Assembly (NCBI RefSeq): GCF_006345805.1
Contig: NC_043024.1
Span: 124,001-188,000 of the forward strand
Direction of reading: 5' to 3'
Origin: Octopus sinensis
Lineage: Eukaryota
Length of the DNA stretch: 64,000 nt
The first letter of the stretch is position 1, and each line of letters opens with the position of its first letter. A model generated the notes under the pieces. That model made no database searches. It saw only the letters and a list, made by a program, of their open reading frames with translations, and was not told where the DNA came from. Positions 3,781-64,000 of the stretch are shown one piece after another. Position numbers and translations under genes: made by a program.

Positions 3781-4114
3781 TTTAAATGTTAAAAAATATA
3801 TATATTTGCGTCAATATGTCTGAAGAATATTAGAAATTTAAAAAAAAAAAAATTTTTTCTCTTTTATAATGACATAATTTTTAAAGAAAGACCGGTTCGC
3901 ATTTAGCTTTTCAAATTTCTTGTGACGTTATGTTTGTATAATATATAATATATACACTTGCCCAAACATAACGTCACAAGAAATTTGAAAAGCTAAATGC
4001 GAAACCGGTCTTTCTTTAAAAATTATGTCATTATAAAAGAGAAAAAAAAATTTTTCTTTTAATTCTAATATTCTTCAGACATATTGACGCAAATATATTA
4101 TTTTTTAACATTTA
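3781..4114. repeat. Inverted repeat (about 155-bp arms) flanked by a 130-bp direct repeat (3645-3776 and 4183-4316); putative PLE pLTR fold-back
   Basis: Arms 3781-3936 and 3963-4114 are near-perfect reverse complements; a related copy lies at 4900-5020. Confidence 0.85.
3978..4016 (+). ncRNA. Hammerhead-like motif, U3-A8 variant
   Basis: AAGAAA t TTGAAAA GC-taaat-GC GAAA CCGG TC TTTCTT: stem I AAGAAA/TTTCTT, palindromic stem III, GUC site. One extra T precedes the core. Confidence 0.5.
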
Positions 4115-5290: not shown

Positions 5291-5620
5291 ATATTAGGGA
5301 ATAAATCCAAATTTACAGGAAAAAATCAGATTTAGGATTAAATCCAATTTTATAGTAAAATATTATATAATATTAATTCGAGACAAAACCACTATTTTGC
5401 AATACAAACAAGGAAAGACTTAACCAATACATAAAAATTTTAATATAAAGAAATAAACCGCCACTACAATCGTTTCATGTCTTCGAAAATCCACCTGACG
5501 AATGTCATTGAAGACATGAAACGATTGTAGTGGCGGTTTATTTCTTTATATTAAAAATTTTTATGTGTATTGATTAAGTCTGTCCTTGTTTGTATTGACA
5601 AATAGTGGTTTTGTCTCGAA

Positions 5621-5630
<10 letters not shown>
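5291..5630. mobile_element. Non-autonomous PLE-like fold-back element in (TA)n
   Basis: Arms 5369-5484 and 5509-5630 are inverted, with an HHR core at the centre. The left terminus ATATTAGGGAATAAATCCAAATTTACAGG is shared with 49725. Confidence 0.75.
5491..5533 (+). ncRNA. Minimal type-I hammerhead ribozyme
   Basis: CCAC CTGACGA ATGTC-attgaa-GACAT GAAA CGATTG TA GTGG: intact core, perfect stems I and II, GUA cleavage triplet. Confidence 0.85.
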
Positions 5631-5659
<29 letters not shown>

Positions 5660-22672: not shown

Positions 22673-22772
22673 NNNNNNNNNNNNNNNNNNNNNNNNNNNN
22701 NNNNNNNNNNNNNNNNNNNNNNNNNNNNNNNNNNNNNNNNNNNNNNNNNNNNNNNNNNNNNNNNNNNNNNNN
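22673..22772. other. Assembly gap (100 N)
   Basis: Run of N. Confidence 1.
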
Positions 22773-23442
22773 TTCCTTGTAAGCCTAGCCCTTATTCTAT
22801 CGGATTCTTTTGTTGAACCACTAAGTTACAGGGACGTGAACACACTAACATCAATTGTCAAGCGGTGGTAGTGAGTGGGACAAAGACACACACACACATA
22901 AATATATACATATGTATACATATATATATATAGGTGTGTGTATATTCATGTAGATATACACAACGGGTTTCTTTCAGTTCCTGTCTACCAAATCCACTCC
23001 CAAAGCTTTGGTTGACCCAAGGCTATAGAAGAAGACGATTACCGAAGGTGCCATGCAGTGGGACTAAACTTTGAACCAAGTAGTTTGAAGCAAGCATCCT
23101 AGCCACGCCTATGAGTTATTATATTTTCTGCCAATTTATTGAAACTGTCAACACAGACAGAAAACACTGACTAATCATCTCTGAAGAGTTTGTTTCTCTA
23201 TCAATTGGTATGGTAACTGTGTGCTGAGAATGTAAAGTATATTTACAAAAGATACATCTTTTTATTGTCTTGTGTGTGCCAGCTGATGCTGCAGGGAAAT
23301 GATGTGAGAGAGTAAGAGAGGTGAAGTTGTGTGCGTGCAAGTGTTTGTGTGTGAGCATGTATGTGTGCACATGTATGTAAATTTTTGTGTGTGTAAGTAT
23401 GTGTGTGTACATAAGTGTATAACTGTGTGTGTGTGTATAGTA

Positions 23443-23831
23443 TTGTATTTCAGGATGGTCATTTTTTTTCTTGCCAAATAAACACACACACACTATATAT
23501 TTGTTCTTCACTCGTTTATTACTTTTCTTATTCTAATTTATGTCCATTGTCCGGAAATCTTTCCTCACACATCTGTGACCTCTTCAGGAACGCTTTCTGT
23601 GTTTGTGTGTGCTCTTGTTTCACTTATTCCATTCTCTGAGAATGGAATAAGCAGAGATAGAGCATACATGAACAGGGAAAGTGTTGCTGAAGAGGTCACA
23701 GATGTGTGAGGAAAGATTTCCGGTCAATGGAGATGAGTTAGAATAGAAACAGTAATAAACAAGTGAAGAACAAATATATTGAGCATGCCCTTATTTGACA
23801 AGGAATAACAAATGACCATCCCAAAATACAA
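23443..23831. repeat. Diverged fold-back inverted repeat (about 195-bp arms) with degenerate HHR-like core
   Basis: Centre CTTATTCCATTCTC-T-GAGAATGGAATAAG at 23637; CTGAAGA GG TCACA-gatg-TGTGA G GAAA at 23687-23714. Confidence 0.8.
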
Positions 23832-24039
23832 CAATATCTGTTTTAACAAAATTTCACATCAGGTATCTTGCAACACAGATTCATAAATGTATATATGTAT
23901 GTGTGTATATATATATATATTATAGTGGGGTAGGCCAGTAGTTTATGGGGTTACTTTGGGTTTCTTGCTCATAAAATCAGCCACTCATAGTATTCAAGAA
24001 CCTGGTAAAAGGTGTCAGTAGGAGGATTTCAAGCCTTTC

Positions 24040-28757: not shown

Positions 28758-28829
28758 GGTCTCATAGTGTAATGGTTAGCACTCTGGACTTTGAATCCAG
28801 CAATCCAAGTTCAAATCTTGATGAGACCT
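28758..28829 (+). tRNA. tRNA-Gln(TTG), possibly decayed or pseudo
   Basis: GGTCTCA TA GTGT AATGGTTA GCAC T CTGGA CTTTGAA TCCAG CAAT CCAAG TTCAAAT CTTGA TGAGACC T: full cloverleaf with one C:A mismatch in the T-stem; a T-run follows about 15 nt downstream. Confidence 0.9.
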
Positions 28830-30063: not shown

Positions 30064-30370
30064 TAACAAGACAGGGAGAAAGATTGCTTGAGACTAAAAG
30101 AGAGGCGAACAGGAGATATATAGAGAGTGGAGAGAGATGAAGTATATAGAAGATATATAGAGTGGGGAGAGGTGGAGTACATACATATATATATATATAT
30201 CATCATCATCATCATCATTTAACGATGATGATGATGATGATATATATATGTATGTACTCCACCTCTCCCCACTCTATATATCTTCTATATACTTCATCTC
30301 TCTCCACTCTCTATATATCTCCTGTTCGCCTCTCTTTTAGTCTCAAGCAATCTTTCTCCCTGTCTTGTTA
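30064..30370. repeat. Near-perfect 300-bp palindrome
   Basis: Arms are identical apart from microsatellite length; centre (CAT)n-TTAAC-(GAT)n. Confidence 0.95.
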
Positions 30371-30947: not shown

Positions 30948-30987
<40 letters not shown>

Positions 30988-31019
30988 CAAAATAAGCAAC
31001 AAGGATATCCAGAGGTAAT

Positions 31020-31105
31020 GCAGTACAATCATTTCATGCAACTCCATTTAATTGAACAATGCAATCATTACATCAATTTAAAAATACAGAGCAATCTTCA
31101 GCTGC
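31020..31105 (-). ncRNA. Type-I hammerhead motif with long stem-II insert, in PLE-like repeat 30982-31195
   Basis: GCAG CTGAAGA TTGC...GCAT GAAA TGATTG TA CTGC: stem I perfect; stem III is a CpG-decayed CGATCG. Confidence 0.7.
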
Positions 31106-31849
31106 ACAAAGACATAGAATTTAATTAAATTAGAACACATGGACACATTAGTATAATTATACCTAAAATCTCCAAGAAGTTAAGGAGACAGGCAATATAT
31201 ATACACATATACATACATATGTATATCATCATCATCATCATCAATCATCGTTTTGACTTCCTCCTTCCCATGCTTTCATGGGTCAGATGGAGTTTCTTAA
31301 GGAAACCTTTCTATAGCTGGATGCACTTCCTGTTGCCAACCTTCACTTGTTTACAAGGAAGGTAATATTTTCCAATGACCAAACATGTTTCTGCAGAATA
31401 TTTAGACATGAATAACATTCATTTACAACAATCACAGGATATCAAAACAAACACATTTTCATTTCTTTCTCTTTCATAAAACACTTCAACCACATCCTTC
31501 ACTGATTATTGTTGTTGTCTTTTAATCTCTCTCTCTCCTCTCACTCTCTTCTCTTCTCTCCATCCCCTCTCTTCTCTCTCTCATCTCTCCCCCTCTCTCT
31601 CATCACCCCTCTCTTACCTAGCAGGAATTTCCTGAAATCTAAGCATGGTTGGAAGACTTCCAGGAGGTCTTCAGACTGTGCTTATGTTTCAGAAATTTCC
31701 TGCTAGCCTATTGGAACCCACAGGATAACAGGGCCACCAGTGATCGATAGCCAAAGGAACACTACTCTCTTTGTTGTCATAGGTGATTGATAGCCAAGGA
31801 GAGACAATCCCCTTTGTTGACATTGAATAAAAAAGGGGTCATTTCCTCC

Positions 31850-33910: not shown

Positions 33911-34078
33911 ATTTATATTATATTTGAAAGGAGAATTCTGGTAGATTCAACAATTTAGAATAATTAAATCATCATATTCTCGGCCATAAAAACAGTTTTA
34001 TGGCCGAGTATAAGTTGTATTATTATTCTAAATTGTTGAACCTACCTGAATTCTCCTTTTAAATATAATATATAAATA
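33911..34078. repeat. Fold-back inverted repeat adjacent to (TA)n
   Basis: Centre CTCGGCCATAAAA-acag-TTTTATGGCCGAG; about 80-bp arms. Confidence 0.85.
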
Positions 34079-34205: not shown

Positions 34206-35356
34206 TCACACACACACGCACATATGCATTCATGTGTGTATGGATGTATGTATTTACACTTGCGTGTGTGTGTGTGTGTGTGTAATGCACATATTAACCT
34301 TTGATATTCATTTAGCTAATTGATTTGATAACATCAATTAGGAGTGAATTTAGTGAAAAATTAATGGCATGGTTGGACGGGTGGGGATTTCAGAAAGCAT
34401 GATGCTTAGAAATATAGTATTGTGTCCTAATTAGAGTCCATCTGTCTGTCAGATCTTTAGAATTGGAAGATGCACAGTCGCACACACACACACTCACATG
34501 CATGTGCACACACATACACCCATAGATGGACATACATGGACACACACGCGCACGTCAAAATATTTATACGCACTGTCCAGTTTTAACTGGGTATTTGCCA
34601 GCAACTGAAAACGCTGAAGGTTAAGACTGTGTTTTTTTTGCAAATGATAAGAAGGAATAATGCTAATTCATACATACTGTGTGTATATCCTCTTGCTGCT
34701 GCTTCTCCCCCCTCCTCCTCCTCATCTTCGTCAATATCGTCATTGTCATCATAATTATCATCCTCCTCCAGGTTATCGTTGTCATCATCATCCTGGTCAT
34801 TGTCGTTGTCATCATCATCATTGTCACCACCACCATCATCATCCTAGTCATTGTCGTTATCATCATCATCATCGTTGTTATTGTTGTAATCATCATCATC
34901 ATCTTTATCATTGTCGTCGTCATCATCATCATTGTAATTGTTGTTGTCATTGTCATCATCATCCTTGTCATCACTGTCGTCATCATCAGTATCATTGTCT
35001 TCACCATCATAATCATCATTAACTGCAACAGCACGCATGGGTTGGCTAGATCTACACACTTACTAGTCTTGAGTGCATTTGGCTTTCATAAACACACACA
35101 CAATTATCGCCAAGTGCAGTCACCACAAAACTGGCGAAAAAACAGTCTGACCAATTATCTGCCATAACCAGGAATATACTGCTCTTGCAAACCAGATACA
35201 AAAAGGAAATATATATATATATTTCCTTTTTGTATCTGGTTTGCAAGATTATTTATGTGAATTTGTGTGTTGAAAAAAATTTTGTTGTGTCTAGGAAGAG
35301 TCATTATGCCAATATTATTAACACACACACACTGTTCAATTCCACTTCTTTATGCC

Positions 35357-35919: not shown

Positions 35920-37142
35920 GCACATATTAACCTTTGATATTCATTTAGCTAATTGATTTGATAACATCAATTAGGAGTGAATTTAGTGAAAAATTAATGG
36001 CATGGTTGGACGGGTGGGGATTTCAGAAAGCATGATGCTTAGAAATATAGTATTGTGTCCTAATTAGAGTCCATCTGTCTGTCAGATCTTTAGAATTGGA
36101 AGATGCACAGTCGCACACACACACACTCACATGCATGTGCACACACATACACCCATAGATGGACATACATGGACACACACGCGCACGTCAAAATATTTAT
36201 ACGCACTGTCCAGTTTTAACTGGGTATTTGCCAGCAACTGAAAACGCTGAAGGTTAAGACTGTGTTTTTTTGCAAATGATAAGAAGGAATAATGCTAATT
36301 CATACATACTGTGTGTATATCCTCTTGCTGCTGCTTCTCCCCCCTCCTCCTCCTCATCTTCGTCAATATCGTCATTGTCATCATAATTATCATCCTCCTC
36401 CAGGTTATCGTTGTCATCATCATCCTGGTCATTGTCGTTGTCATCATCATCATTGTCACCACCACCATCATCATCCTAGTCATTGTCGTTATCATCATCA
36501 TCATCGTTGTTATTGTTGTAATCATCATCATCATCTTTATCATTGTCGTCGTCATCATCATCATTGTAATTGTTGTTGTCATTGTCATCATCATCCTTGT
36601 CATCACTGTCGTCATCATCAGTATCATTGTCTTCACCATCATAATCATCATTAACTGCAACAGCACGCATGGGTTGGCTAGATCTACACACTTACTAGTC
36701 TTGAGTGCATTTGGCTTTCATAAACACACACACAATTATCGCCAAGTGCAGTCACCACAAAACTGGCGAAAAAACAGTCTGACCAATTATCTGCCATAAC
36801 CAGGAATATACTGCTCTTGCAAACCAGATACAAAAAGGAAATATATATATATATATTTCCTTTTTGTATCTGGTTTGCAAGATTATTTATGTGAATTTGT
36901 GTGTTGAAAAAAATTTTGTTGTGTCTAGGAAGAGTCATTATGCCAATATTATTAACACACACACACTGGTTCAATTCCACTTCTTTATGCCGTGGGCATA
37001 TGGCGTAGTGGTTAAGAGCGCAGGCTACTAGCCCCAAGATTCCGAGTTAGATTCCAAGCAGTGACCTAAAAATAACAATAGTAATAATAATAATATTGAA
37101 AAATAGCTTAGGAATGAGAACCTAGGTTCAAAATTTCCCCAA

Positions 37143-41248: not shown

Positions 41249-41494
41249 ACCAGTTGAGCACTGGGGGTCATTGTAATTGATTAGTCCCTTCCCACAAAAT
41301 TTCAGGCCTTGTGACTATAGAAAAAAGGATTGTTATTACTGTTGTTGTTGTATGTATGTATGTATGTATGTATGTATGTATATACATACATACAACAACA
41401 ACAGTAATAACAATCCTTTCTTCTATAGTCACAAGGCCTGAAATTTTGTGGGAAGGGACTAATCAATTACAATGCCCCCCAGTGCTCAACTGGT
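41249..41494. repeat. Near-perfect palindrome of a SINE-A 3-prime end
   Basis: Arms meet at TATGTATATACATA; the right arm continues as a full SINE-A on the - strand. Confidence 0.9.
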
Positions 41495-41699: not shown

Positions 41700-42250
41700 G
41701 CAAAAATGCAATACTGAAAACTATGAAAAAAGTGGGTTCTTGAGAGCAGCAAGACATGGTATGAGCGCAAACCGCAGTGAATGGTGGAGTCAGAGACCCA
41801 CAAAATCCTGTGGGATTTCGCAATCTAAACAGATCAGGTGTTAGAACTTAATGGTGGTGGACAAGGTGTATCACATGTGCTATATAATTGATGTGTGGCC
41901 CTCTGACCCACAAACAGTCAAGAAGGAAGGCAAGAAAATAGACATATACAATCCTCTTAATTATAAAATAGCCCACCTATGGAAAATGAAGAAGGTAAAG
42001 ATAGTGCCAATTATTGTTGGGTCCTTGGGGACAGTATCAGAAGACATAAAGAGGAATATAAAGGAAATCAGTATAAAGTGCCCGGTAGAACTGTTTCAAA
42101 AGGGTTGCCTCCTTGACATGGCCAGAATAGCCAGGGAAGCATTAGATTAGCTGAAAAGAACAGATGGCATGGTACTGTAAGCTGCAGGTAGCAAACCCAC
42201 TACACATGCGAGACTCCAGGAGATCTGACAAAACCCGAGTTAAAGAGAAA
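41700..42250 (+). pseudogene. R4/Dong-type LINE restriction-like endonuclease C-terminal remnant
   Basis: KILWDF..TD..; CYIIDV.P.D; KK...Y..L..KI..LWKMKKVKIVPIIVGSLG is the RLE-domain signature. Confidence 0.8.
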
Positions 42251-45056
42251 AGTGATAATAATAATATTTTAAAAGGATTGATGTAACTCTTCACAAAGGT
42301 AAATAGACAAAACAAAGAGTACGATGCGATTGCAAGAGAAGTTTTTATTGGTTGAAGGATATTTCGACAGCTTGCTTGTCTTTGTTGAGTTCTTTTCACT
42401 TTGAACTCGACAAAGACAGGCAAACTGTTGGAATATTGTTCAACCAATAAGATATCTATAAAAATCGCATCGTGCTCTTCGTATTTTTTAATCGGCTTTT
42501 GGCTAAGATCAAAGTGTAGAATAATAATAATACCTATGGCAATAATAATAATAATAACAATAATAATAATCTCAAACACAAGTACACAGCCAACATTGCC
42601 AGAATTTGAACTCAGAAAGCAAAGGGACATATCGAAATGCTGCAAAGCATGTTTTGCACCATTCTACTGATTTGGTTTTCTGTCAATTCTTCATAATATC
42701 AATTATGGTTTTAAATTTTGGCATAAGGCCAGGAATTTAAGGTGGGGGTTAAGTTGGTTACACCGACCCCAGTGCATAACTGGTACTTATTTTATTGACC
42801 CTGAAAGGATTAAAGGTAAAGTTGACCTCGGGAGAAATTGAATTCAGAACATAAAACTGGAAGAAATGCTGCTAAGCATTTTGTTCCAATTTTGGCAAAA
42901 GGCCCGAAATTTTTATGGGGGGTGGGGATTAATCAATATCATTGAACCCAGTACTTGATTGGTCCTTTTTTTTTTTTTTATTAATCCTGAAAGGTCACTA
43001 CCTTTGTTATAATAATAATAATAATGGTTTCAAATTTTGGCACAAGGCCAGCAGTTCCATAAGAGGGGTTTGGTCAATTACATCAACACCAGTATTTAAC
43101 TGGTACTTATTTTATCGACCCTGAAAGGACGAAAAGGCAAAGTTGACTTTGGTGCAATTTGAACTCAGAACGTAAAGACAAATGAAATACTGCTAAGCAT
43201 TTTGTCTGGTGTGCTAATGATTCTGCCAGCTTGCTGCCTTAATAATAATGATAATAATAATCCTTCCTACAATAGGTACAATGCCTGAAATTTTGGGAGA
43301 AGGACCAGTCAATTAGATTGACCTCAGTATGTAACTGGTACTTAATTTATCAACTCCGAAAGGATGAAAGGCAAAGTCAACCTCGGCGAAATTTGGATTC
43401 AGAACATCAAGGCAGATGAAATGCTGATAGGCATTTCGCCTGGCATGCTAACAATTCTGTGAGCTCACTGCCTTAATAATAATAACAATAATAATAATAA
43501 TATTTCAAGATTGAAGTTACTCTCTCCAAAGGTAAAGAAACAAGAAAACAGTCACACTGTTCATTTGTTTCATTTTCATTTTAATAAACAGTCAAACAGC
43601 TGAACTCTTCTTGTTTTTTTAAATAATCTCTAACATATGCACAAGGCTACAAATTTGGATTTAGAGCAGATTAAATTGAAAGCAGCACATAGTTGATATT
43701 TTATTGACCCTGGTAACAGGCAGCACAACCAGAATTTGAACTCTGTGTGTACATGTATATAAAAATATAAATATATACATAAATATATGCATACACAAAT
43801 GTGCATGTGTGTATATGTATGTACGTATGTGTGTGTGTATATACACACACACACACACACATATATATATACATATATTTGTGCATGTGCAGGCATATAT
43901 GTATGTATATATATATATTTATATATAGGTTTCTTTCAGTTTCCGTCTACCAAGTTCCAAATTCCTTTGCAAGGCTTTGCACTGCCTGGGGTTATATTAC
44001 AGTAGAAAACACTCAAGGCGCAGTGAAGTGAAACTGAACCTAAAGTCATGTTGTTGGGAAGCAAACTTCTAAACCATGCAGCCATGCCTGAGCCTAGCCT
44101 GTCTTTTATATAGCTAACTCCATTCTTTGATGTTATCATGTTATACTCTACAGATGTTTTTCAGATGACCACCATTTGTGCAAATGCTTCATGTGGCAAA
44201 TGCCTGGATGACACATCCGAACTGACATAAAAAAGCTTATGTGCTGCTGCCACATAAAAAGCCCCCTGTACACTCAGTGAAGTGGTTGGTCTTAGGAAGG
44301 GCATCCAGTCATAGAAACCATGTCAAAACAGACAACTGCAGCCTAGTGCAGCTCTCTGGCTTGTGAGCTACTGTAGAAACCGTCCAACCTATGCCTGCAT
44401 TGAAAATGGATGTTAAATCATGATGATGATGATGATATATGTATATGTGTATATATATATTCACAATTATATATATATATTAAGTTTGATATTAATAAGA
44501 CACTGGCTACTATTCTGTTTTAATCTATGCAATTTTACTCGCAAGTCACATGTCCATCCAAGGAATATGGAAGAAAGCGCTTACCAAAGGTGCTGCAGAC
44601 TGGGATTGCAATGCAATCCATTTGATTATAAATGTAATATTTTACCTACATTTTACTACCAACTAGGTTTCATATTTGATATAGAATGAAAGCTTCTATC
44701 ATTGGGATAATTTAGGGTTTTCTGAAGGGTGCTATTTGTAAGGATTAGGGATAGAGTTGGGTAGAATACAGGTTTGATATTGTACAGAGGTTGTTATCAC
44801 AATTTATTGGTATAATAATAATAATAATAATAACAACAACAATAATAACAATTATATTATTATTATTATTATTATTATTATTAGTGTTGTAATTATGAAA
44901 AGATAATTTTTCTTGTATTTTTTCTGACATCATTATATTTTGTACAATGGTAACATTTTTTTGTTCTTTTTTTTTTACTGCTTCTAAATATTAAAAAAAA
45001 ACACAAAAATAATGAAGTATCAAAAAATCAAGAAATTTAAACAAAAAAGCCCCCCA

Positions 45057-45413
45057 TCAAACATAGAATTCTCGGCACTGTTCATCATCCCGTTCTTTGA
45101 TGCCAAGCTCTCCATTGAGCAGAGTCTCTGTGGTTTCAACACTGTCTATCAGGTTATGTTGATCTGAGAAAGAGTCCCGGTGTCGCGGAAGCAAGAACGT
45201 GACACGTGTCTTCCGTCGACACTGCAATACAATGTATATGATACAGCCAAGCACAACGATGACTCCCAGGGTGACCACAATGGCTATTTTAATGTTGTAC
45301 AGCAGCTTCTTATTGCCATAAATGAAATGGTGTGAGTGTAAACGCTCATGGTGATGGAAATTGTTTGACCTGAATATCTGCGATGCTAAAGATATTTCGT
45401 TGCTGTGATCCAT
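45057..45413 (-). CDS. 118-aa single-pass membrane protein with His-rich N-terminus and C-terminal EFYV (PDZ-ligand-like)
   Basis: ATG in strong Kozak context ACCGCCATGG; TM IAIVVTLGVIVVLGCIIYIVL followed by CRRK stop-transfer; acceptor-like ...CATAACATAG before 45494; AATAAA at 44808-44803. The frame is open from 45494, so it could instead be a terminal exon. Confidence 0.8.
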   Translation of the reverse strand: MDHSNEISLASQIFRSNNFHHHERLHSHHFIYGNKKLLYNIKIAIVVTLGVIVVLGCIIYIVLQCRRKTRVTFLLPRHRDSFSDQHNLIDSVETTETLLNGELGIKERDDEQCREFYV

Positions 45414-46176
45414 GGCGGTGGTGAGAAATCTATTTTGGGATTCCAGTTTGAATATTTTGATGTTGTTACTGATGAGTAAATTACATATATACATCTATGT
45501 TATGGATGTGTGTGTAGAAAGAGAGAGTGTGTGTAGGCATGGTGGGTATTCACAAAGAGAAAGAGAGAGATAAAGAGAAAGACAAAGAAATTGTATGTGT
45601 GACTAAATAGTCAATCTTTTAAAGTAGAGAAAAGAAAGTTTATGAAAATCAATATTTGTCATGTAAGCTAAAATAGAGAACAGAAAAAATCCACAAAGCT
45701 AATAAGAAAACTTTTTAGAGAAACTAGTTTAATGTTATATATGTGTGTGTGTATTATATATATTTATGTGTGTGTGTGTGTGTATAAATTATAATGGTAT
45801 ACTATATATATGATGATGATGATATATATATATATATTTTGTGCTGAGACGACAGTCATACAAAATTCGTAGATTAATGGAATCTTAGTCTGCTTTGCTT
45901 TTGTGTTTTTTTCTTCTTTTTCTTTAAGTTGTTTTCTTTAATTTCCAAGTGAATTTTTTCTTCTTTACAGGTTTGTATGAATATAGACAGACAAATGAAT
46001 GAATCTGTCTGTAAAAGTTAGGCAAATCTAGGCAGAAGTAAAATGAATCAGAAATAGAAATTGTGCGGAGATGGGAGAAAGGTAAACAAGATTAGGGAGA
46101 GAGAGAAATGGTAAAAGTGTGATTGGAGTAACAAGTTAAGCAGAAGTAAGATTGATAGATGTCAGGTAAGTAGACT

Positions 46177-47247: not shown

Positions 47248-47354
47248 CTGTAAAGAGAAGAAAAAGAAATCAGTCTCCATTATAGAACATTATAGAAAGT
47301 GAAGATAAAAGAGGCACAGGAAATATACATATCTACATACGCACATATATACAC

Positions 47355-47860
47355 AAGTAGTGGAAATCAGCTGCCCAGCGGATGTTAACATAAAGCTAAA
47401 GATGAGTGTAAAAAAAAATACCTATGCTGAATTATTGAAGAATCTACAGCTACTCTATGCAGATTACAAGTTCAGATTTGTACCTGTAATTATTGGGGCA
47501 CTGGGATATGTAGCACACTGCCTAAATACCAATCTTCAGAAATTAGGCTTCTCAAAACCAGAAAGAAGAAAGCTGATTCGAAGACTATGGATCCAATCCA
47601 TCATTGGAACTGTAAAAATATGTAAAACTTTCCAGATGTTCATCATTCAAGTATATATGAGCATGTCTAGATATGTAACTATATGCATGAGAATACATAC
47701 ATAAAGAAAAACATACAAATCTGCATGTATACAGACATACATGCATACAAAAATACTCTGTTGTTGATGCTGAAATCCCAATGAAGGAGTATTGCATCTC
47801 AGTTAGAAACTGGATCTTTCTCTATTCGCAGGAAATCTTGAAATAAAACTAAATAATGAC
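47355..47860 (+). pseudogene. RLE-type LINE 3-prime remnant
   Basis: VEISCPADVNI...KK..Y..LL..LQLLY..YKFRFVPVIIGALG RLE signature plus 3-prime UTR. Confidence 0.8.
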
Positions 47861-48601: not shown

Positions 48602-49400
48602 GCACAGGCATGGCTGTGTCATAAGAAGCTTGCTTCCTAACCACATGGTTTTGGGTTCAGTCCCACTGCATGGCACCTTGGGTAGGTGTCTTCTACTATA
48701 GCCCCAGGCTGACCAAAGCCTTGTCAGAGGATTTGGTAGATGGAAACTGAAAGAAGCTCACGGTATATATGTATGTGTGTGTGTGTGTGTGTGTATTTGT
48801 GTCTGTGTTTATCCCCCACCACTCCTTGACAACTGGTGCTGATATGTTGATGTCTCCGTAACTTAGCAGTTCAGCAAAAGAGACTGATAGGATAAGTACT
48901 GGAGTTGATATATCTAACTAAAAAAATTTTTCAAGGCGGCACCCCAGCATGGCCTCCGTCTGATAACTGAAACAAGTAAAAGAATATATATCCTTTTTCT
49001 TTTATTTGTTTCAGTCATTATACTGTGGCCATGCTGGGGCACAACTTTGAAGAATTTTTAGTCAAATAAATCAATGCCAGTGCTTATTTTTCTTTTAAAG
49101 GCTTGTATTTATTCTATCGGTTGCTTTTTGCTGGACCACTAAGTTTCAGGGATGTAAACACACCAACACTGGTTGTTAAGCAATGGTAGGGAACAAACAC
49201 AGACACAAGACACACACACTACCATAAATATATACAACAGGCTTCTTTCAGTTTCCATCCACCAATTCTACTCACAAGGCTTTGGTTGGCCTGAGGCTTT
49301 AGTAGAAGACACTTGCCCAAGGTGCCACACAATTGAACTGAACCTGGAATCATGTGATTGGGAAGCAAGCTTCCTACCACACAGCCATGACAGTGCCTAT
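48602..49400. mobile_element. Two SINE-B copies tail-to-tail (48602-48983 +, 48992-49400 -)
   Basis: Both match the family-B consensus in opposite orientations, about 8 bp apart. Confidence 0.85.
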
Positions 49401-49992
49401 AGAACTGGCACTCTGTTGGTTACGATGACGAGGTTTCCAGTTGATTCGATCAACGGAACAGCCTGCTTGTGAAATTAATGTGCAAGTGGCTGAGTACTCC
49501 ATAGACACACATACCCTTCACATAGTTCTAAAAATGTGAAAAGGCTGTCATTTGAAATGCAGGTGCTACTCATTTTTGCCAGCTGAGTGGACTGGAGAAA
49601 GGTGAAATAAAGTGTCTTGCCAGGTATTGAACTCATGAAACTTACAACCATGAGCTAAATACCCTATGTCACAAGCCTTCACTGTGCCTATATATATGTA
49701 TATATATATATATATATGATAATAATATTAGGGAGTAAATCCAAATTTACAGGGAAAAATTAGATTTAGGATTAAATCTAATTTTACAGTATAAATATAT
49801 ATATATTAAATTAGAGATAAAACCACTATTAGGCAAATCAAAACAGTGAAAAACATAAACCAAAACATAGAAATAAAATTAATTAATATAATACACAAAA
49901 TATATAAAATTCAAATTTAAAGTTAAAATTAAAAAAAATTTTTAATTATTAATTTATACTTATAAATTATACCTATAGATTTATATATATAT

Positions 49993-50026
<34 letters not shown>

Positions 50027-50145
50027 TATTTTTATTATCTTTTATTTTTTTAATTATATATTTGTTTAATTTAAAAAAATTTTATTATTAATATATATAA
50101 CTATCAAAAAGTATTAAAAAGTTTAATATAAGATAATAAGTAAAA

Positions 50146-50242
50146 CCACTACGATCGTTTCATGCCCATAACCTAATTCGAATAACAATAATTTAAATTC
50201 AATTAATAATTCGAATTATGGTTATAGTCAATCTTCAGGTTA
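50146..50242 (-). ncRNA. Hammerhead motif with extended stem II (left arm)
   Basis: Reverse complement of 52452-52548. Confidence 0.65.
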
Positions 50243-52451
50243 ATGATAATATTTAAATAAATAATCAAATATATTTAAACAATATTTTTTTAAAGAAATA
50301 AATAAAATAATAATTTTTCTTATAAAAAACTCTATTATCAAACTAGAAACTTTAACGATTATGATTATGTCATACAATCAATTATAATGTTAAATATTAA
50401 TTTTTAAGTATTAATTTTTAAGGTAAGAATAGATAGAAAATGTATTTATCTATTCAGATATAATATGGCTTTAAAAAAACATAATAAACCCACAAATAAT
50501 CTAATCTCAGTTATAGTCAATATCTAATTACCTAAATATTTAACAAAAAAAAAAAAAATCACTAATCATTATTAAATTCAATTTCAAGTCAAATAACTAT
50601 ATAATATTTGAACAATAACCAAACCATCAATGAACTCATACAAGTGTATATAAATATAAGAATTAAGATCCAAAACTATCTCCATCAACAAGTATATATG
50701 CACGTATAACAAAGACCTAATAAATTAATTATTCTTTACCACTTATAAATACATTAAAAGATTAAAGATGAAAAAGCCGACTGTAAACAAACAAACAAAT
50801 CATTCCAAAAGAACTTCACAACTAATTAACGATCCATACATCTCGTTGGCCAACTAATAACCTACAAAAACCGTATAGTTAAGAACTAAAATGAAACAAC
50901 AAAACACTTAATGAAATAATCAATCTGCAGCTATACAGTATCCAACATATACCACTAACACACTTATCAATGGAAAAAATACCACTACCAATCTTCAATT
51001 GAAAAAAAGAAACATACAAGTTATAACAACAATTATAAAATACCTAAAATAACTATCAAAAATTACAACTATTAAAGACCAAAATCTAAGCCACCAATAC
51101 ATGCATACACATGAAACCCAACTTTAAAAGACTCGTACAACTGTTAATAATCAATACATCTCCTTGGCCAAGCAAAGTCCCACGAACAAACGTAGAGCCA
51201 AAATCCAATAATTAAATAGAAAAATCCATGTCAACTAAATCACTGCACAACAATCGGTACCTATACAAAATTATACCAAAACATTTAAATTTCAAAATCT
51301 AAAAATCCCAAATACAAACATATACTTATCTTTGCAAAGATAAGTATATATTCACATCTAAGATTTCCAAATTTTAAAATTTAAATACTTCAAAAAGTCC
51401 CATTGTACAATTCTGCACTTCACACAAATACTGATTGCCATGCAATGATCCAGCTATCGCAGCCCCCTCCACCCAATTATTAGATTCCAACTCCACGTCC
51501 ATCCACAAGACCCCACCCAGCCAAAGAGACACATTGATCGCCAACAGTTACACGAGCCCTCCAAAGCCAGGCTTCATGCACATACATGCATTGACAGCTC
51601 AAATTCCAGTCTTTAACAACCACAACTGTTGATAGCCACCTCAAACATTTTATAATTGTTACTACAACCCACACATTTTCCCCTTCAACTGACAATTGGC
51701 AGCAGTACTCCTTCCACCGACAAACATTTTAGTAGCACCTATCGGATACCACACAACCATGGATTGATCACTTCATCAAGCACTTTACCATTTCATTCCA
51801 GTTCCCAACTACACGGCCCCTGCAAGTTACCAACCAGCCAATGAGATACATGGATCGTTAACCAGCTAGAGTTCCAACAAGATAGCCCGCCTGCTCGTCC
51901 ACAACTAGCTCCCTCATCCCCAATCCTCCAATAAGCAACAATGAACAATTAATCCAACAGGTCCCCACCACACGCGCATATACACTCATTGATAGAGACA
52001 ATCCCAGATCCCAACTCCCATACTCATATAAATTCTTATATTTATATACATTTGTATGTGTTCATTGATGGTTTGGTTATTGTTCAAATATCATATAGTT
52101 GTTTGACTTGAGATTGAATTTAATAAAATATGATTAGTGATTTTTTTTTGTTAAATATTTAGGTAATTAGATATTGACTATAACTGAGATTAGATTATTT
52201 GTGGGTTTATTATGTTTTTTTAAAGCCATATTATATCTGAATAGATAAATACATTTTCTATCTATTCTTACCTTAAAAATTAATACTTAAAAATTAATAT
52301 TTAACATTATAATCGATTGTATGACATAATCATAATCGTTAAAGTTTCTAGTTTGATAATAGAGTTTTTTATAAGAAAAAATATTATTGTATTTATTTCT
52401 TTAAAAAAATATTGTTTAAATATATTTGATTATTTATTTAAATATTATCAT

Positions 52452-52548
52452 TAACCTGAAGATTGACTATAACCATAATTCGAATTATTAATTGAATTTA
52501 AATTATTGTTATTCGAATTAGGTTATGGGCATGAAACGATCGTAGTGG
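52452..52548 (+). ncRNA. Hammerhead motif with extended stem II (right arm)
   Basis: TAAC CTGAAGA TTGACTATAACCATAATTCGAAT...ATTCGAATTAGGTTATGGGCAT GAAA CGATCG TA GTGG; stem I is weakened. Confidence 0.65.
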
Positions 52549-52697
52549 TTTTACTTTTTATCTTATATTAAATTTTTTAATACTTTTTGATAGTTATATA
52601 TATTAAAATAAAAATTTAAAAAATTAAATAAATATATAATAAAAAATAAAAAAATTTTAAAAATAAAAATTAGATTAAAAATAATGATAAAAATAAA

Positions 52698-52742
<45 letters not shown>

Positions 52743-52967
52743 ATATATAAATTTATAAGTATAATTTATAAGTATAAATGAATAATTTAAAAAAGTTTTA
52801 AATTTTAACTTTAAATTTAAATAATTTAAATAATTTAAATTTTGAATTTTATATTTTATATATTTTGTATATTATATTAATTTTATTTCTGTGTTTTGGT
52901 TTGTTTTTCACTGTTTGATTTGCCTAATAGTGGTTTTATCTCTAATTTAATATATATATATATATAT

Positions 52968-53930
52968 CATCATCATCATCATCATCGTTTAACGTCCGTT
53001 TTCCGCGCTAGCACGGGTTGGATGGTTTCGACCGGGGTCTGGGGAGCTCAGGACTGCCCCAGGCTCCAGTCTAGTCTGGCAGTGTTTCTACAGCTGGATG
53101 CCCTTCCTAACGCCAACCACTCCGCGAGTGTAGTGGGTGTTTTTTACGTGCCACCTGCACAGGTGCCAGAGGGGTCTGGCATCGGCCACGTTCGGATGGT
53201 GCTTTTTATGGGGGGGGGGTGCAGAAATATAGGGGAGCACCAGTGGGAGGGGTGGTTCTGAGGACAGGTTCTAGGCAAGTAGAACGTAGGATATCGAGAG
53301 GGGTAATGCATGGTTAAATAGCGTATTGAAGAGGGGGGTTCAAAGAGTAGACACCTATAATGGTGGTGGGGGGGTGCAGAAATATAGGGGAGCACCAGTG
53401 GGAGGGGTGGTTCAGAGGACAGGTTCTAGGCAAGTAGAACGTAGGAAATCGAAAGAGGGGTAATGCATGGTGAAATAGCGTATTGAAGAGGGGGGTTCAA
53501 AGAGTAGACACCTATAATGGTGGTGGGAGAAACGACAACCGGTATAGTTGGAGCAAAATAGAGATATCCGGTATTGGTGGTGGTGGGGGTGGGTAGGGCG
53601 GGCGCGCCGCGAAGAATCGGCGGCCAATTCGATCAGCCCTGTAAGGGAGATAGATCTTAAATATCTATAACGATAACTAATGAATTATACAGAATATGCA
53701 AAAACGAGGCGAGGCTGAAATAGTAAACAGAGTGGCGACTAGGGGGATCAGAATAATGATACATAATAAATAATAATAAATAGAGATACGGGGTGAATTA
53801 AAGTTCAAAGATTTCTTATCTTGGGATGACTTCGTTTACGGACAGACTTGGCAAAAGGAATTCGGAATCAAGAATGAGGCAGGTTACTAGCTTAAGTATG
53901 CATAGCCATGGAGAGAAGTAGGAAGAGAAT
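52968..53930 (-). mobile_element. Young RTE-tailed element (family C) with 160-bp tandem duplication (53208-53527); other family C ends at 29430-29630, 38820-39015, 44240-44430, 63385-63702
   Basis: GGTTGGCGTTAGGAAGGGCATCCAG...GGACGTTAAAC(GAT)n 3-prime end; CpG-rich upstream block. Confidence 0.7.
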
Positions 53931-54770: not shown

Positions 54771-55733
54771 TATCAGATCATTAAGAATGAAGTGTCCGAT
54801 TTTCTTATGCACCAAGTTTGACAGTCATTAACTCTAATGTTTTATCCTGACAATTCTTTGTTTTACAACATTGAAGGGTTACATCATCACTTTTCACAAT
54901 ACAATTCATGGTGTCTGATTACATTGAGAATTTTCTCTTGTAAATCAATTTTTGTGAACCCATAGATAGATAAAACATTTGTGTTCTTTATGAATGAGTT
55001 CTGTTGTGGAACCAATGCATCCCAGACAGCTCAAAACATCAATGGAGTGTTTGGGGAAAATGCGGCGAATGAGTAGACTGTACGTTGATGGTTTGAGAAG
55101 TTCTCGTCTGGTGACTTTACTCTTGAAAATCAGTCCCATGGTAGAGCTGAGGTGGATAATGATGGGCTGGAAACTATAGCAGAAGCAGATACATCTCAAA
55201 CTATGCATGAGTTAGCAGCGAAGTTTGATGCATCGATTCCAAGTGTATTGGACCACCTGAAACAAATTAGCAAGGTAAAGAAGCTGGACAAGCGGGTACC
55301 ACACAAATTGAACGAGCATCAAAGGACATGTTGTCTTGAAACTTGCTGTTCTTTGCTGTCTCGGCATAAAAGCAAAACATTTTTGCATCATATTGTTACA
55401 TGTGATGGAAAATGGATTCTTTTCAACAATGGCAAGTATTCTGCACAATGGTTAGATAGAAACGAAGTGCCAAAACAAAGAATATTCACCAAAACAAGCA
55501 AATGGTGTCAGTTTGGTGGTCCAACACTGATGTCATCCCCTACAGCTTCATGAGACCTGGTAAGTCAGTTACAGCGGATGTATACAACAACCAACTGGAC
55601 AAAATGATGAGTGAACTTGCAATTAAACGACCAAGATTGGTCAATAGAGACAGGCCAGTTCTCTTGCAAGACAATGCTTGACCACATGTTGCACAAAGAA
55701 TGCTACTCAAGTTACAGGAACTAACTTGGAAGT
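54771..55733 (+). pseudogene. Mariner (DD34D) transposase remnant with left TIR
   Basis: KLDKRVPHKL (WVPHEL motif), FLHHIVTCDGKWILFNN and PVLLQDNA*PH motifs; frameshifts and stops. Confidence 0.9.
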
Positions 55734-55734
55734 A

Positions 55735-56297
55735 CTCCAAGTTTTTGCTAGGTTAACTCTAAGTCCCTTTGATTCTAGACCTTGTTTCCATACCTGGGAC
55801 TCCTTCTCTAGTTCTGGTAGTGACAGGTATAAGAGCAAGGTCATCAGCATAGAGGAGCTCCAGGGGCATCCTGTCTTGAATTCCTCTGTTATTACCTGGA
55901 GGACTATGATGAACAAAAAGGGGATGAGCACTGATCCTTGATGAATCTCTACTTGTACCCTGAATTCTTTACTGTATTTGTTGCCCACCCTCACCTTACT
56001 GGTAGCATCCCTGTACAAGGCTTGTACAGCTCTTACCAACCACTCGTCTATCCCTAGTTTCCACACTGATCACCAGATAACGGATCGGGGGACTCTGTCA
56101 AAAGCTTTCTCCAAGTCAGCAAAAGCCAGGTACAGAGGTTTAGCGTTGGCTAGGTATTTCTCCTGTAGTTGCCTTACCAGAAATATAGCATAAGTGGTGC
56201 TTCTACCTGGCACAAAGCCAAACTGCATCACATCTAGACCAATTCTCTCCATGATTAGTTGGGCTATGACTCTCTCTGCAACTTTCAAAATATGTGG
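55735..56297 (-). pseudogene. RTE-clade LINE reverse transcriptase fragment
   Basis: QFGFVPGRSTT..., AFADLEKAFDRVPR, HQGSVL.PFLF and LYADDL motifs; stop and frameshift present. Confidence 0.92.
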
Positions 56298-56707: not shown

Positions 56708-56763
<56 letters not shown>

Positions 56764-56820
56764 GTATAATGTAAATTAATTTAAATTTGATATAAACCAC
56801 TATTAGGCAAATATATAATA

Positions 56821-57004
56821 TTACACAAAGTATTTAATAAAATCTTCTCACATTGAGCACCAAGTTTGGTTTCTATCTATGGCTCATCAGAGGAAAATAG
56901 AGAAGTTCAAGCATTTTGTCACAATATGTCACACCAACTCCTTCTGTTGTATATATATATATATATACATACATATTATACACACACACCACATCTGTCT
57001 ATAT

Positions 57005-57039
<35 letters not shown>

Positions 57040-57140
57040 GATATATATATAACATCATGGTGTAGCATAGCATATTATTGGCATTAGGAAGAGTATCCAG
57101 CCATATCTATGTCTGTCTGTCTATCTATCTATCTATCTAC

Positions 57141-57203
<63 letters not shown>

Positions 57204-58096
57204 GTGTATATGTGTGGTATATATATTATATATTTGCATTGAGCCCCCTATTTTTATATAGAGCCTGGTGTTTATGTCTAGAATAAATATGGCAGCCATC
57301 TCAGTAGAAATCTTTCAGGACAAGGCAAAATGAATTGTTGTTTTGTCATAATCCAAAGTGATGAAAAATATGTTTCATTGATAAGTATATGGACAAAACA
57401 TGTGTTTACAAGTTTGCCTGTATCAGTAACTGCAAGCAATTCACATTTGTAAAGTGCTCAACTTCCCATGGAACGGGCTGATAAATACTGAAATTCTGTA
57501 TCAGAATGTAATCAATGTTGTGGCTTTGTGATACATTGTTGCTTCACACAGAGTGTTTAATACTGTGGAAAAGTTGTAAACACTACATTGAATAAAAGAG
57601 CTATTTAAACGTGGTGTGTGTGTGTGTGTGGTTGTATATGTAGATATATTGCAAGCGCTACTGCCTGCATTACTAGACATATAACAGCTTATTTATCTAA
57701 TAACATCTCTTATCAATGGACACAATGTTTTGCTTTCATAACTGATTGGGAAAATATTGAAAAGAGAATTTTTAATCATGCTGTCATTCTATAAAGCTGT
57801 CATATCAGCATGAAACAGTGAGGACCGAGGCAAAATGAATGGTCATTTTACTGTAAGCTGAAAACACGAGAAATACACTTTGTTGGAAAAGAGAGAGACA
57901 GAAAGTTTATTTAGGAATTCTTTTATATAAATATCTATTTGTGACAAACAATTTTAGAATGCTTTGCATCTTGAGGAAGGAATTGGTGTGACATATTGTG
58001 ACAAAATGCTTGAAACTTCTCTATCTTCCTCTGATGAGCCATGGAAACCAAACATGGTGCTCAATGTGAGAAGATTTTATTAAATACTTTGTGTAA
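56821..58096. repeat. Inverted repeat pair (about 120-bp arms, 1-kb spacer) containing CTGATGA...GAAA
   Basis: 56821-56940 is the reverse complement of 57979-58096. Confidence 0.8.
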
Positions 58097-58911
58097 TACA
58101 CACGTACACATGCATGCACACATATGTGTACACACACACACACACACACCACACACACACACGCATACTGGTTTCAAACTTTGGTACAAGGCCAGTAGTT
58201 TTATGGGAGTGTGGATAGTCAATTGCATTGACCCCAGCACCCAACTGGTACATATTTTATTGTTCCCACAAGGACGAAAAGCAGTCAACCAAGATGGAGC
58301 ATTCAAATCCAATCCAATATGTACGTATATTTTTTACATTTACACACAGATAAACATGCCTCCCACCCACCACATGCATGCATGTGCACAAACACACACA
58401 CACACACACAAGCCATGTTCAGAGGTGCCATCAGAATGAGATTAGCATCTAGGCTGAAATATATCAGGTTTCAGTTATAAACACCCTTCTGTTTATTACA
58501 GTCCTCCAGACCATAAAACAGGAATTTCAGTGGTTGCCAATGGAAACTCCTGTACATCAATAACTAAATTATCATAAGTGAATCTCTCAAAGATTCAGTG
58601 GAGAAATTCCAAACCTTGAAGCCATAATTAGAACCAAGAGGCTTGTAAAATAAACCTAGTAAAGACTGAAGTTTTGAGGAATTGGAAAAAAGCTCATGTT
58701 GAACTGCCATGAAGCATGGCAGTTAGCACACATGCGTCATACAATCTACCTTTCACTCTGAGCGAGAGACCCTTTGTCGCCAGTAGGGGAAGAAGCTTCC
58801 TAAACTTTACCCAGGCTATTCTTATTCTAGTGGTAACACTCTCTGAGCATCCACCCCTGCTACTGACTTGGTCACCTAGGTAGCAGAAACTATCAACTAC
58901 TTCTAGTTTCT

Positions 58912-61900: not shown

Positions 61901-62396
61901 ATGCATGTATGTATGTATATATGTGTGTATGTGTTTGTGTTTCTGTATGTATACATGTATGTATGTATGAATGTATGCCTGTATAGTGTATGCATTTATA
62001 CTTTGTATGTATGTATGTATGTATGATCATCATTTAACAACATATATTTATAAGTGTGTATGTATTTATATTTCTCTATATGTTTGTGTGTGTACGTATA
62101 TCTGAGTATAGCTCCTTCTGCGTCTGTGTGTTCGTGCATGAGCTTGTAGCATGCAAATTTATGGCTTTTTTGCTGCAGATAATACAAGCATTTATACAGC
62201 ATAATCATAGAGACGCAGGCACTTATAACACATGTGCGAATGGCCTTTCATTCATATTGGGAACATGTGTGTATGAATGTATGCCTGTACCATATTCATC
62301 TGAATCTATATATTTAGATTCAGATGAATATGGTACTTAAGTTGAAGCACCAGCATTTAGTATGGTATTATCCATACAATTTCAAAATAAGGTGAT

Positions 62397-62967
62397 TAAA
62401 ATCAAAATAAGCAACAGGATATCCAGAGGTAATGCAGTACGATCGTTTCACGCAACTCCATTTAATTGAACAATGCAACCATCATATCAATTTTCAGTTG
62501 CAAAAAGACATAGAATTTAATTAAATTAAAACAGATGGACACATTAGTATAATTTTACCTAAAATCTCCAAGAAGTTAAGGAGATAGACAAAGAACATGC
62601 TGCCTTCACTTAAGCTACTAAGGTATCAGGAAGAAAAACTTGTTACAGATTTTGCTTGTCACTGTTTTATGGGGTCAGTTTTAATTTATAGACTAGTTTT
62701 ATCAAATCCTTGTATATCTAAGGCCGATAGAACAAGGGGCAGTGTCTGTTAGGGTAAGAGCTGAGGGAATCGACAGAAATCATAGTGGGTATAGTCATAA
62801 AAAACTATCAAGATTTATTTGAAGCAATATCATGAGATTTGGTAAAGGAAAACTTAAATCAAGATGTTAGCTGACAATTATCAATGGTCTGCTAGTGGCC
62901 GACCCTCTTAACATCTTGATTTACATGAATCGATCGTACTGCATTACCTCTGGATATCCTTGTTGCT

Positions 62968-62970
<3 letters not shown>
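62397..62970. mobile_element. PLE-like element (same family as 30982-31195) with defective HHR at 62434-62501 (-) and a short inverted terminal copy
   Basis: AAGCAAC(A)AGGATATCCAGAGGTAATGCAGTACGATCG at the left; its reverse complement at 62930-62970 runs into (TA)n. Confidence 0.75.
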
Positions 62971-63282: not shown

Positions 63283-64000
63283 CTGAAAAGTAAGTTTAAA
63301 ATAAATAAGCTAAAAGAAAGTTAGGGCCATTGAAAAAGTGTCCAAAAACTGATGCATCCTATATATATATATATCTGTAGTTGTGATATCTGTGCTGGTG
63401 GCATGTAAAAAGTACCATCCGAATGTGGCCGATGCCAGCGCCACCTTGACTGGCTTCTGTGCCAGTGGCACGTAAAAAGCACCAACCGATTGTGGCTGCT
63501 GCCAGCCTCCCCTGTCACCTGTGCCGGTGGCACATAAAAAGCACCCACTACACTCACGGAGTGGTTGGTGTTAGGAAGGGCATCGTGCTGTAGAAACTCT
63601 GCCAGATCAGACTGGAGCCTGGTGCAGCCTCCTGGCTTCCCAGACCCCAGTCGAACCGTCCACCCCATGCTAGCATTGAAAACGGACGTTAAACGATGAT
63701 GATCTGTGTGTGCATGTATGCGTGTGTATACACACACATATTTATAAGTATATACATACATCCAATATATGTGAGTGTGTGCGTGTAAGTGTATATCTGA
63801 TCATGTGCATGTATACATGTCTATAAAGACGTGTACATACTTATGTAGATGGCTGTTCATATATGCATGTCCTGTGTGTGAGAGAAAAACTACTTTTGTG
63901 AATAAATTCTTAATTCTTTTGAAGTGTAAGAGATAAGAATGAAAGGTAGAGAAGTCATAAAATAGAAATTCGATCTGTTAAAAAAAAATAAATAAAAGAC

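Follow-up and report, generated by a model that had tools for sequence, protein, structure and literature searches.

A fold-back element of Octopus sinensis whose core very probably preserves the edits of a hairpin RNA

A fold-back element at positions 49725–52966 was studied in a 64,000-nucleotide stretch of the Octopus sinensis genome (contig NC_043024.1, positions 124,001–188,000 of the forward strand), called the window below, to which all coordinates refer. The original prediction, made from the sequence alone, described inverted arms of about 0.9 kb around an AC-rich 1.37-kb core without a credible open reading frame (ORF), with an extra terminus on one arm and the other arm stopping in (TA)n. 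The outer arms (49790–50664 and 52031–52966) were confirmed: they are identical in 841 of 866 aligned columns and in 560 of 570 (98%) within their complex part, and their duplex contains 819 Watson-Crick pairs in 849 columns (96.5%). The asymmetry of the ends was found as described, with a tail of about 65–80 nt present on the left arm only (49725–49789 plus an internal TA tract to 49806), while the right arm enters (TA)n where the left arm has its internal TA tract. None of the 12 stop-read-through frames of the core matched Pfam at E≤0.1, which agrees with the lack of a credible ORF; the core as a nuclear mitochondrial DNA segment or an ORF remnant was ruled out, as it has neither a long frame (tables 1 or 5) nor a Pfam match. 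The core does show the reported strand bias, but instead of separating the arms as a spacer it continues their palindrome inwards for ~690 bp, and the whole element is a single 3.2-kb palindrome with more than 1.6 kb per half (Table 1).

Table 1. Features of the fold-back element and of related elements in the window
Feature	Position	Strand	Remarks
3' tail of the element, left arm only, with two short hairpins	49725–49789	-	Same tail at 5291
Left outer arm, sense on minus, unedited; begins with TA tract 49790–49806	49790–50646	-	
Hammerhead-like motif, type I, left arm; copied through uncleaved	50150–50248	-	
Inner left half, putative 3' arm of the edited RNA hairpin	50647–51334	-	A→G at 69/218
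Perfect zero-spacer palindromic apex, centre 51334/51335	51321–51348	.	Last edit at 51319
Inner right half, putative 5' arm of the edited RNA hairpin	51335–52030	-	A→G at 167/319
Putative final 18 nt of the edited cDNA, edited counterpart of 50647–50664	52013–52030	-	
Right outer arm, unedited inverted partner without tail; ends in (TA)n	52031–52966	+	
Mirror hammerhead-like motif	52446–52554	+	CTGAAGA at 52456, GAAAC-GATC-GTA at 52533–52544
Short unedited relative, same tail, 123-bp arms	5291–5633	.	116 Watson-Crick pairs; 1 vs 2 transitions by direction
Different hammerhead family, 52-bp inverted arms, decayed cores	62397–62970	.	

The palindromic nature of the core was revealed by aligning it with its own reverse complement under scoring that gives every kind of transition the same tolerance. 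The alignment scored 702, compared with -23 ± 15 (maximum 8) for 100 shuffled sequences, and the left half of the core pairs with the reverse complement of the right half all the way from the arm boundary to the apex. In the final register (50647–51333 versus 51338–52030) 674 columns contain 418 Watson-Crick pairs and 256 mismatches, the latter composed of 167 A/G and 69 C/T differences, 10 reverse transitions and 10 transversions. The A/G and C/T differences, 236 in total, are all G·U pairs when the minus strand is read as RNA, against 10 in the opposite direction (p=3e-57), and these counts shifted by no more than two in all five scoring schemes used. The minus strand is accordingly the one that folds well (-741 kcal/mol versus -285 kcal/mol for the plus strand), and the richness of the core in A and C noted in the original prediction results from this one-way bias. 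The outer arms are balanced in this respect, with 7 and 8 transitions in the two directions, as are nine other local fold-backs; no other edited hairpin was found in the window, and among the fold-backs scored the one-way bias is specific to this element. The C content of the plus strand is 11.5% in the left outer arm (50090–50646) and 21% inside. Background divergence is similar in the inner (20/674) and outer (30/849) parts, which fits a single event.

The locus was checked over 50090–52130 using contigs from four of the 24 listed sequencing runs; the best-covering run, X1, was excluded as a possible source of the assembly. Contigs of single-copy depth from run X2 cover 50606–50884 without differences and 50875–52089 with two. 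Contigs of run X3 cover 50867–51702 and 51751–52089 (0 differences each), and those of run X5 cover 50867–51349 (10 differences, 13 gaps) and 51320–52089 (1 difference). These three runs belong to three studies and carry three organism labels, one run being possibly the assembly source. Contigs of single-copy depth bridge the left limit of the edits as well as the right junction. Of the non-G·U mismatches of the window, four (51148, 51229, 51231 and 51256) are paired in the X5 allele and one (51225) is of G·U type there, which makes these five positions later mutations of the allele of the window. The core is single-copy in depth and has no edited sisters, while the family to which the element belongs is dispersed and 5'-truncated, as expected from target-primed copying: in X2 the summed contig depth is about 200,000 close to the ribozyme but only about 50 at the apex, a difference to be read as a gradient and not as copy number. 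None of the runs listed with the element sequence is labelled as RNA; one of them, X11, is guessed to be RNA, and its contigs over the core do not amount to evidence of transcription. Searches of public collections for family copies gave no metagenome and no viral matches, and five bacterial 19-mer matches were treated as chance.

The G·U bias alone does not tell the direction of change, as a G·U pair can be derived from either A:U or G:C. Three kinds of evidence indicate that the minus strand of the stem lost A's to G, at 236 of 537 positions (44%): the bases carried by other family copies, the GC content of the ancestor, and the 5' neighbours of the changed sites. For the first, contigs of the four runs, deep family contigs included, were aligned to 50090–52130 at 80% likeness. 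Among the 40 listed of 124 rows of differences, 15 of the 16 C>T rows within 50664–50920 fell on G·U sites (15 of 20 such sites) and one lay opposite a gap; the listed C>T rows touched none of the 28 paired C's, the A>G rows none of the 67 A/G sites, and no C>T row was listed within 50090–50670. The four runs gave C>T and A>G differences at 32 and 8, 37 and 7, 29 and 9, and 17 and 6 places, respectively. An internal paralogous repeat points the same way: of 25 informative sites, 18 carry A/T, four carry G/C and three have a transversion. An A:U ancestor would have had a GC content of 18.0%, compared with 18.2% in the adjacent unedited arm, whereas a G:C ancestor would have had 53%.

The neighbours of the changed sites point to the enzyme. 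The edited fraction was 52% after U (124/237), 47% after A (96/203), 17% after C (6/36) and only 7% after G (3/44), the depletion after G being highly significant (3/44 versus 226/476 for the other neighbours, p=3e-8). By 3' neighbour the fraction was highest before G (31/54), followed by C (24/50), A (91/203) and U (78/208), and the order of neighbours was unchanged when only unedited neighbours were counted. Upstream-G depletion is described as a conserved ADAR motif, and octopus gave the strongest hyper-editing signal among the species surveyed (PMC5625713). The edits are confined to the double-stranded part. Judged by this pattern, the writing enzyme was likely ADAR, and the original prediction that a double-stranded transcript would be a potential ADAR substrate can be taken further: the core DNA appears to record past editing. 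When the edits were reversed in silico, the longest frame of the reconstructed stem did not exceed 54 codons. Only after this reversal did decayed internal direct duplications become visible (50804–50905 versus 51123–51225 and 50652–50702 versus 51061–51111, about 320 and 410 nt apart; 75% identity over 104 columns).

The limits of the edited region coincide with a junction. The edited right half stops at 52030, and its last 18 nt correspond to 50647–50664 with five A→G changes and no other difference. The same 18 nt recur unedited at 52031–52048, at the start of the outer arm, without microhomology at the junction. On the left half the edits begin at 50671. All three boundaries thus lie within ~25 nt, which suggests a single cause, the base of an RNA stem. 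The lack of hyper-editing in the left outer arm suggests that this part was unpaired in the RNA and that the complementary part ended near 52030. The 18-nt duplication is best read as the mark of a join between two separately copied pieces.

Each outer arm carries a hammerhead-like motif, as originally predicted. On the minus strand the CTGAAGA and GAAAC-GATC-GTA elements are located at 50238 and 50161 (to 50150), mirroring those of the right arm. The core motifs are kept on both arms, but stem I is weak (two contiguous pairs) and stem II is 70 nt long with U·U at its base, a feature described for a low-activity axolotl motif (PMC7229834). In the relative at 5291 a type I motif at 5491–5533 (+) is intact by anatomy, with a 4-bp stem I, CTGACGA at 5495, a 5-bp stem II and GAAAC-GATT-GTA at 5518–5529, while the other arm has only a 3' half motif (-). 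A search of 5440–5570 and 52420–52580 in Rfam revealed no hammerhead family even at E≤10, the matches listed being chance ones of hairpin or microRNA type; the ribozyme assignment, and with it the putative type I hammerhead near the 3' end, therefore rests on motif anatomy. A self-cleaving long double-stranded RNA, as originally predicted, is unlikely. Each strand has one sense motif, which a full transcript would bury in the 96.5% duplex of the outer arms, a full fold-back transcript would likewise bury the motif at 5291 in duplex, and the insertion continues past the cleavage site, so that its template was uncleaved.

Taken together, these data make it very probable that a non-autonomous Penelope-like element (PLE) gave rise to a hairpin transcript, which ADAR hyper-edited before it was reverse-transcribed into the germline. 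The following sequence of events can be proposed. (i) A parent copy of this non-coding family would have formed an almost perfect palindrome, which is common among PLE insertions. (ii) To judge from the edit limits, its minus strand would have given an RNA with the 5' end near 52030, composed of a 690-bp stem and an unpaired 3' part of 900 nt. (iii) In both arms of the stem, and nowhere outside it, 236 of 537 A's were changed, presumably by ADAR. (iv) The insertion continues through the hammerhead cleavage site, which implies an uncleaved template. (v) A PLE reverse transcriptase (RT), acting in trans and primed on nicked (TA)n, may have begun at the tail and produced a first complementary DNA (cDNA) that crossed the wobble-weakened stem and the loop to the 5' end of the RNA. 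(vi) A second cDNA would have been primed from the opposite strand and started at an inner site. It would have covered the unpaired part, come to a halt 18 nt inside the stem and been joined bluntly to the first, leaving a tail-less unedited arm and the 18-nt duplication.

The last two steps have a counterpart in the PLE protein of anole, which nicks both strands of AT-rich DNA, extends them and uses two start sites flanking the tail, with uncleaved RNA as template (PMC11167929). By the role described there, the tail at 49725–49789 is likely the distal start region of reverse transcription. In the element at 5291 the upstream end of the tail-less arm lies ~24 nt beyond that of the tail-bearing arm. 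As it also holds the 5' half of the ribozyme, the tail-less arm cannot have been copied from the cDNA of the other. Two cDNAs from two start sites thus appear to fit the outer arm better than the template-switch inversion of the original prediction, which is not needed to explain it.

Several observations weigh against the proposed history. No single record spans the element, and its outer ends and flanks lie outside the read-checked interval. No unedited parent palindrome was observed, family contigs being almost absent over 51125–51330. The RNA start near 52030 is unexplained; transcription may have begun internally, the RNA may have been trimmed, or the inverted arm of the parent may have been short. 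Neither a remnant of an RT or endonuclease in the element (0 of 12 frames in Pfam) nor, in a search limited to the window, an autonomous partner was found. The tail of ~65–80 nt is longer than the usual 30–40 bp of PLEs (PMC8557442). Five of the 15 polarising rows depend in each run on a single family contig, some 10 of the 236 G·U-type sites are expected as background, and at least one such site, 51149, resembles later CpG decay, as the X5 allele is paired there.

Among other explanations, one that we consider doubtful though possible starts from the same edited RNA and lets the first cDNA fold back onto itself to make the outer arm, as in the template switch mentioned above. It shares steps (i)–(v) with the history proposed here and is counted in our confidence for those steps only. 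The right arm indeed starts again no more than 18 nt from the homologous register, and its complex part is 98% identical. However, the stem of the cDNA strand has A·C mismatches and folds poorly in comparison with the RNA, the junction lacks microhomology, and such a fold-back, possible for the big copy, cannot make the relative at 5291.

It is improbable that an unedited 3.2-kb palindrome was already in place and that recombination or break repair exchanged its centre for the cDNA of its own ADAR-edited transcript. This would account for the unedited outer arms beside an edited centre and for the fact that the unedited parent is not seen elsewhere, and zero-spacer palindromes are fragile. Yet a full-length transcript would have paired and been edited in the outer arms as well, one hairpin base suffices to explain why the right arm ends within ~25 nt of both limits of editing, with an 18-nt duplication, and the inner and outer parts are alike in background divergence.

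Slow selection for a functional G·U-rich hairpin RNA, with mixed A-to-G and C-to-U changes over many generations, is very improbable. It would agree with the much better folding of the minus strand, and X11, which is guessed to be RNA, has contigs over parts of the core. The changes, however, are polarised one way in an ADAR context and end at a sharp boundary without a compensatory pattern, the core is single-copy in depth without edited sisters, and the differences of the X5 allele resemble neutral later mutations. Deamination of C to T by an APOBEC/AID-like enzyme in minus-strand cDNA of a GC-rich ancestor has been largely refuted and is barely tenable: the reconstructed changes are enriched after a 5' C (23/30 and 65/70), which resembles the CC preference attributed to such enzymes, but A:U is what the family contigs carry, the internal repeat speaks against such deamination at 18 sites to 4, and a 53% GC ancestor would have to stand beside an 18% GC arm and undergo 49–79% conversion. 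Finally, perfect inverted repeats are known to be prone to assembly error and the ends of the element lie outside the read check, but an assembly or sequencing artefact is hardly credible, the contigs from three studies reproducing the core and the junction with 0–2 differences in the main pieces and X5 providing an allelic version.

The element is regarded here as PLE-like and non-autonomous; as no ORF or partner was found, this assignment rests on architecture and falls short of proven membership in the family. An ORF for a PLE RT with a GIY-YIG endonuclease is missing, as expected for a non-autonomous copy, while an inverted 5'-truncated partner with a one-sided tail is present in all three elements of the window. 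The same unit, an AT-rich or (TA)n target, a type I hammerhead near the 3' end and an uncleaved template are described for PLEs (PMC8557442; PMC11167929), and a preference for (TA)n is given for two Octopus Naiads (PMC8557442, File S1). The insertion route suggested in the original prediction is therefore supported and had been described before, a fold-back with a one-sided tail in (TA)n being already standard for PLEs (PMC8557442). Unlike the units described, our element has no ORF, and the copied RNA was itself apparently a palindrome, which would make this a second-round insertion; A-to-G edits such as the 236 found here are not mentioned for PLEs in the excerpts of either paper.

ADAR-type changes fixed in DNA by reverse transcription are already known for retroviruses. 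In A-to-G hypermutated avian retroviruses (Felder, 1994; Hajjar and Linial, 1995; both via PMC12925331) nearly 50% of the A's in an inverted repeat of the RNA were changed to G, much as in our element. The avian cases, as described there, are virus isolates or proviruses in culture, whereas the octopus element is non-viral, inherited and shared across samples, and it keeps both arms and the stem boundary. Non-LTR retrozymes are likewise non-coding and low in GC, have a type I hammerhead and are probably moved by PLE enzymes (PMC7229834; bioRxiv 10.64898/2026.07.22.740005); the U·U at the base of stem II and a 2-bp stem III with a tetraloop are shared with axolotl HHR_Amex2 (PMC7229834). However, retrozymes are direct tandem repeats of 150–450 bp that make circular RNAs, while our element is a dispersed inverted unit without a tandem monomer. 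A retrozyme was rejected on the absence of tandem hammerhead repeats, the only duplication being the decayed internal one of ~320 bp without a ribozyme. A fold-back or miniature inverted-repeat (MITE) DNA transposon was also ruled out. Symmetric terminal inverted repeats with fixed target-site duplications would speak for one, as the original prediction had pointed out, but the termini are asymmetric in all three elements of the window; edits of RNA type would moreover imply an RNA intermediate. APOBEC editing of the DNA of genomic retrotransposons, with one burst frozen in one copy, was reportedly described by Carmi, Church and Levanon in 2011. There the change is said to be C-to-U on single-stranded cDNA, whereas here it would be A-to-I on double-stranded RNA and, unlike in such copies, is readable from a single copy, each arm recording the ancestral base of the other. 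In the literature searched, which left most subscription journals outside, no report of an inherited ADAR-hyperedited PLE hairpin was found.

The locus would provide direct sequence evidence that a copy of a hyper-edited RNA can enter the inherited genome of an animal, here in the lineage where A-to-I editing is most abundant. A single insertion preserves several traits of a PLE transposition intermediate: its strand, how far it was paired, where its 5' end probably lay, and that its own ribozyme had left it uncleaved. Two cDNAs told apart by their edit state bear on how inverted PLE units form. It can be tentatively suggested, with somewhat less than even confidence, that ADAR hyper-editing and Penelope RT form in octopods a recurrent route writing RNA edits into the germline. 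The evidence comes from one locus. If the suggestion is true, fold-back insertions would be transcribed as hairpins, editing would loosen their stems for read-through by RT, and the edited copies would persist as stable "G·U palindromes" where perfect palindromes would be deleted. Across the genome, such copies would amount to a class so far overlooked, which repeat annotation would miss as strand-biased unique DNA and which would date past ADAR activity in the germline. The right half of our element is only ~69% identical to the reconstructed unedited stem, so edited cores would escape repeat masking. One-way G·U palindromes can, however, be scanned for in any assembly within minutes, which makes the feedback of editing into cephalopod genomes testable.

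The original prediction assigned the same architecture to the element at 5291. The tail, the 3' end (82% identity over 181 columns comprising the two) and the asymmetry are indeed shared, but there is one complete and one half hammerhead instead of two. Two short tail hairpins (around GTAAAT..ATTTAC and GATTTA..TAAATC) are common to 49733–49782 and 5299–5348; by analogy with the anole PLE they are candidates for an RT start signal. The analogous layout proposed for the element at 62397 holds for its inverted arms and asymmetric ends, but its arms are short, its hammerhead cores are damaged (CTGAAAA and GAATC), its tail is ~10 nt and (TA)n is found on the right only; its middle contains no hidden palindrome (score 42 versus a shuffled mean of 46). 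A solo truncated copy of this family (85% identity) lies at 30982–31195 with (TA)n on the left. Its hammerhead has a better core than that at 62397, with CTGAAGA, a 5-bp stem I, a long stem II like that of the big element and an altered GAAAC. Overall, (TA)n flanks two elements on both sides and a third on one side, and a target duplication is unreadable inside (TA)n. The right (TA)n of the big element adjoins an (ATC)n tract and a dispersed repeat (52968–53210) that also occurs at 63404–63703 and 44292–44450, which places the element at the edge of another repeat. A scrap of the 3' end of the big family at 56755–56812 adjoins a 125-bp inverted pair with copies 1 kb apart (56818–58099).

Other short fold-backs were found at 3800–4098, 23441–23833, 30066–30368 (perfect over 144 columns), 33914–34072, 41249–41494, 42358–42437, 48621–49377 and 62287–62336. 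Several of them copy flanking DNA and microsatellites, and those scored show no one-way G·U bias. The direct repeats 34633–34932 and 36265–36564 are 100% identical, 1632 nt apart and probably longer, and represent either a recent duplication or an assembly artefact; an assembly gap of 100 N is located at 22673–22772. A tRNA gene was revealed at 28758–28829 (+) (64.9 bits; anticodon TTG by alignment). The open frame 45057–45494 (-) resembles a host exon that encodes a transmembrane segment (putative exon 45060–45422), with no relative among longer proteins. Debris of retroelements and transposases is present at 55707–56069 (-), 41845–42150 (+), 47309–47704 (+) and 55089–55553 (+). One piece is an RT fragment with named relatives in Octopus bimaculoides and Argonauta, two fragments look like restriction-like endonuclease tails, and one like a mariner transposase.

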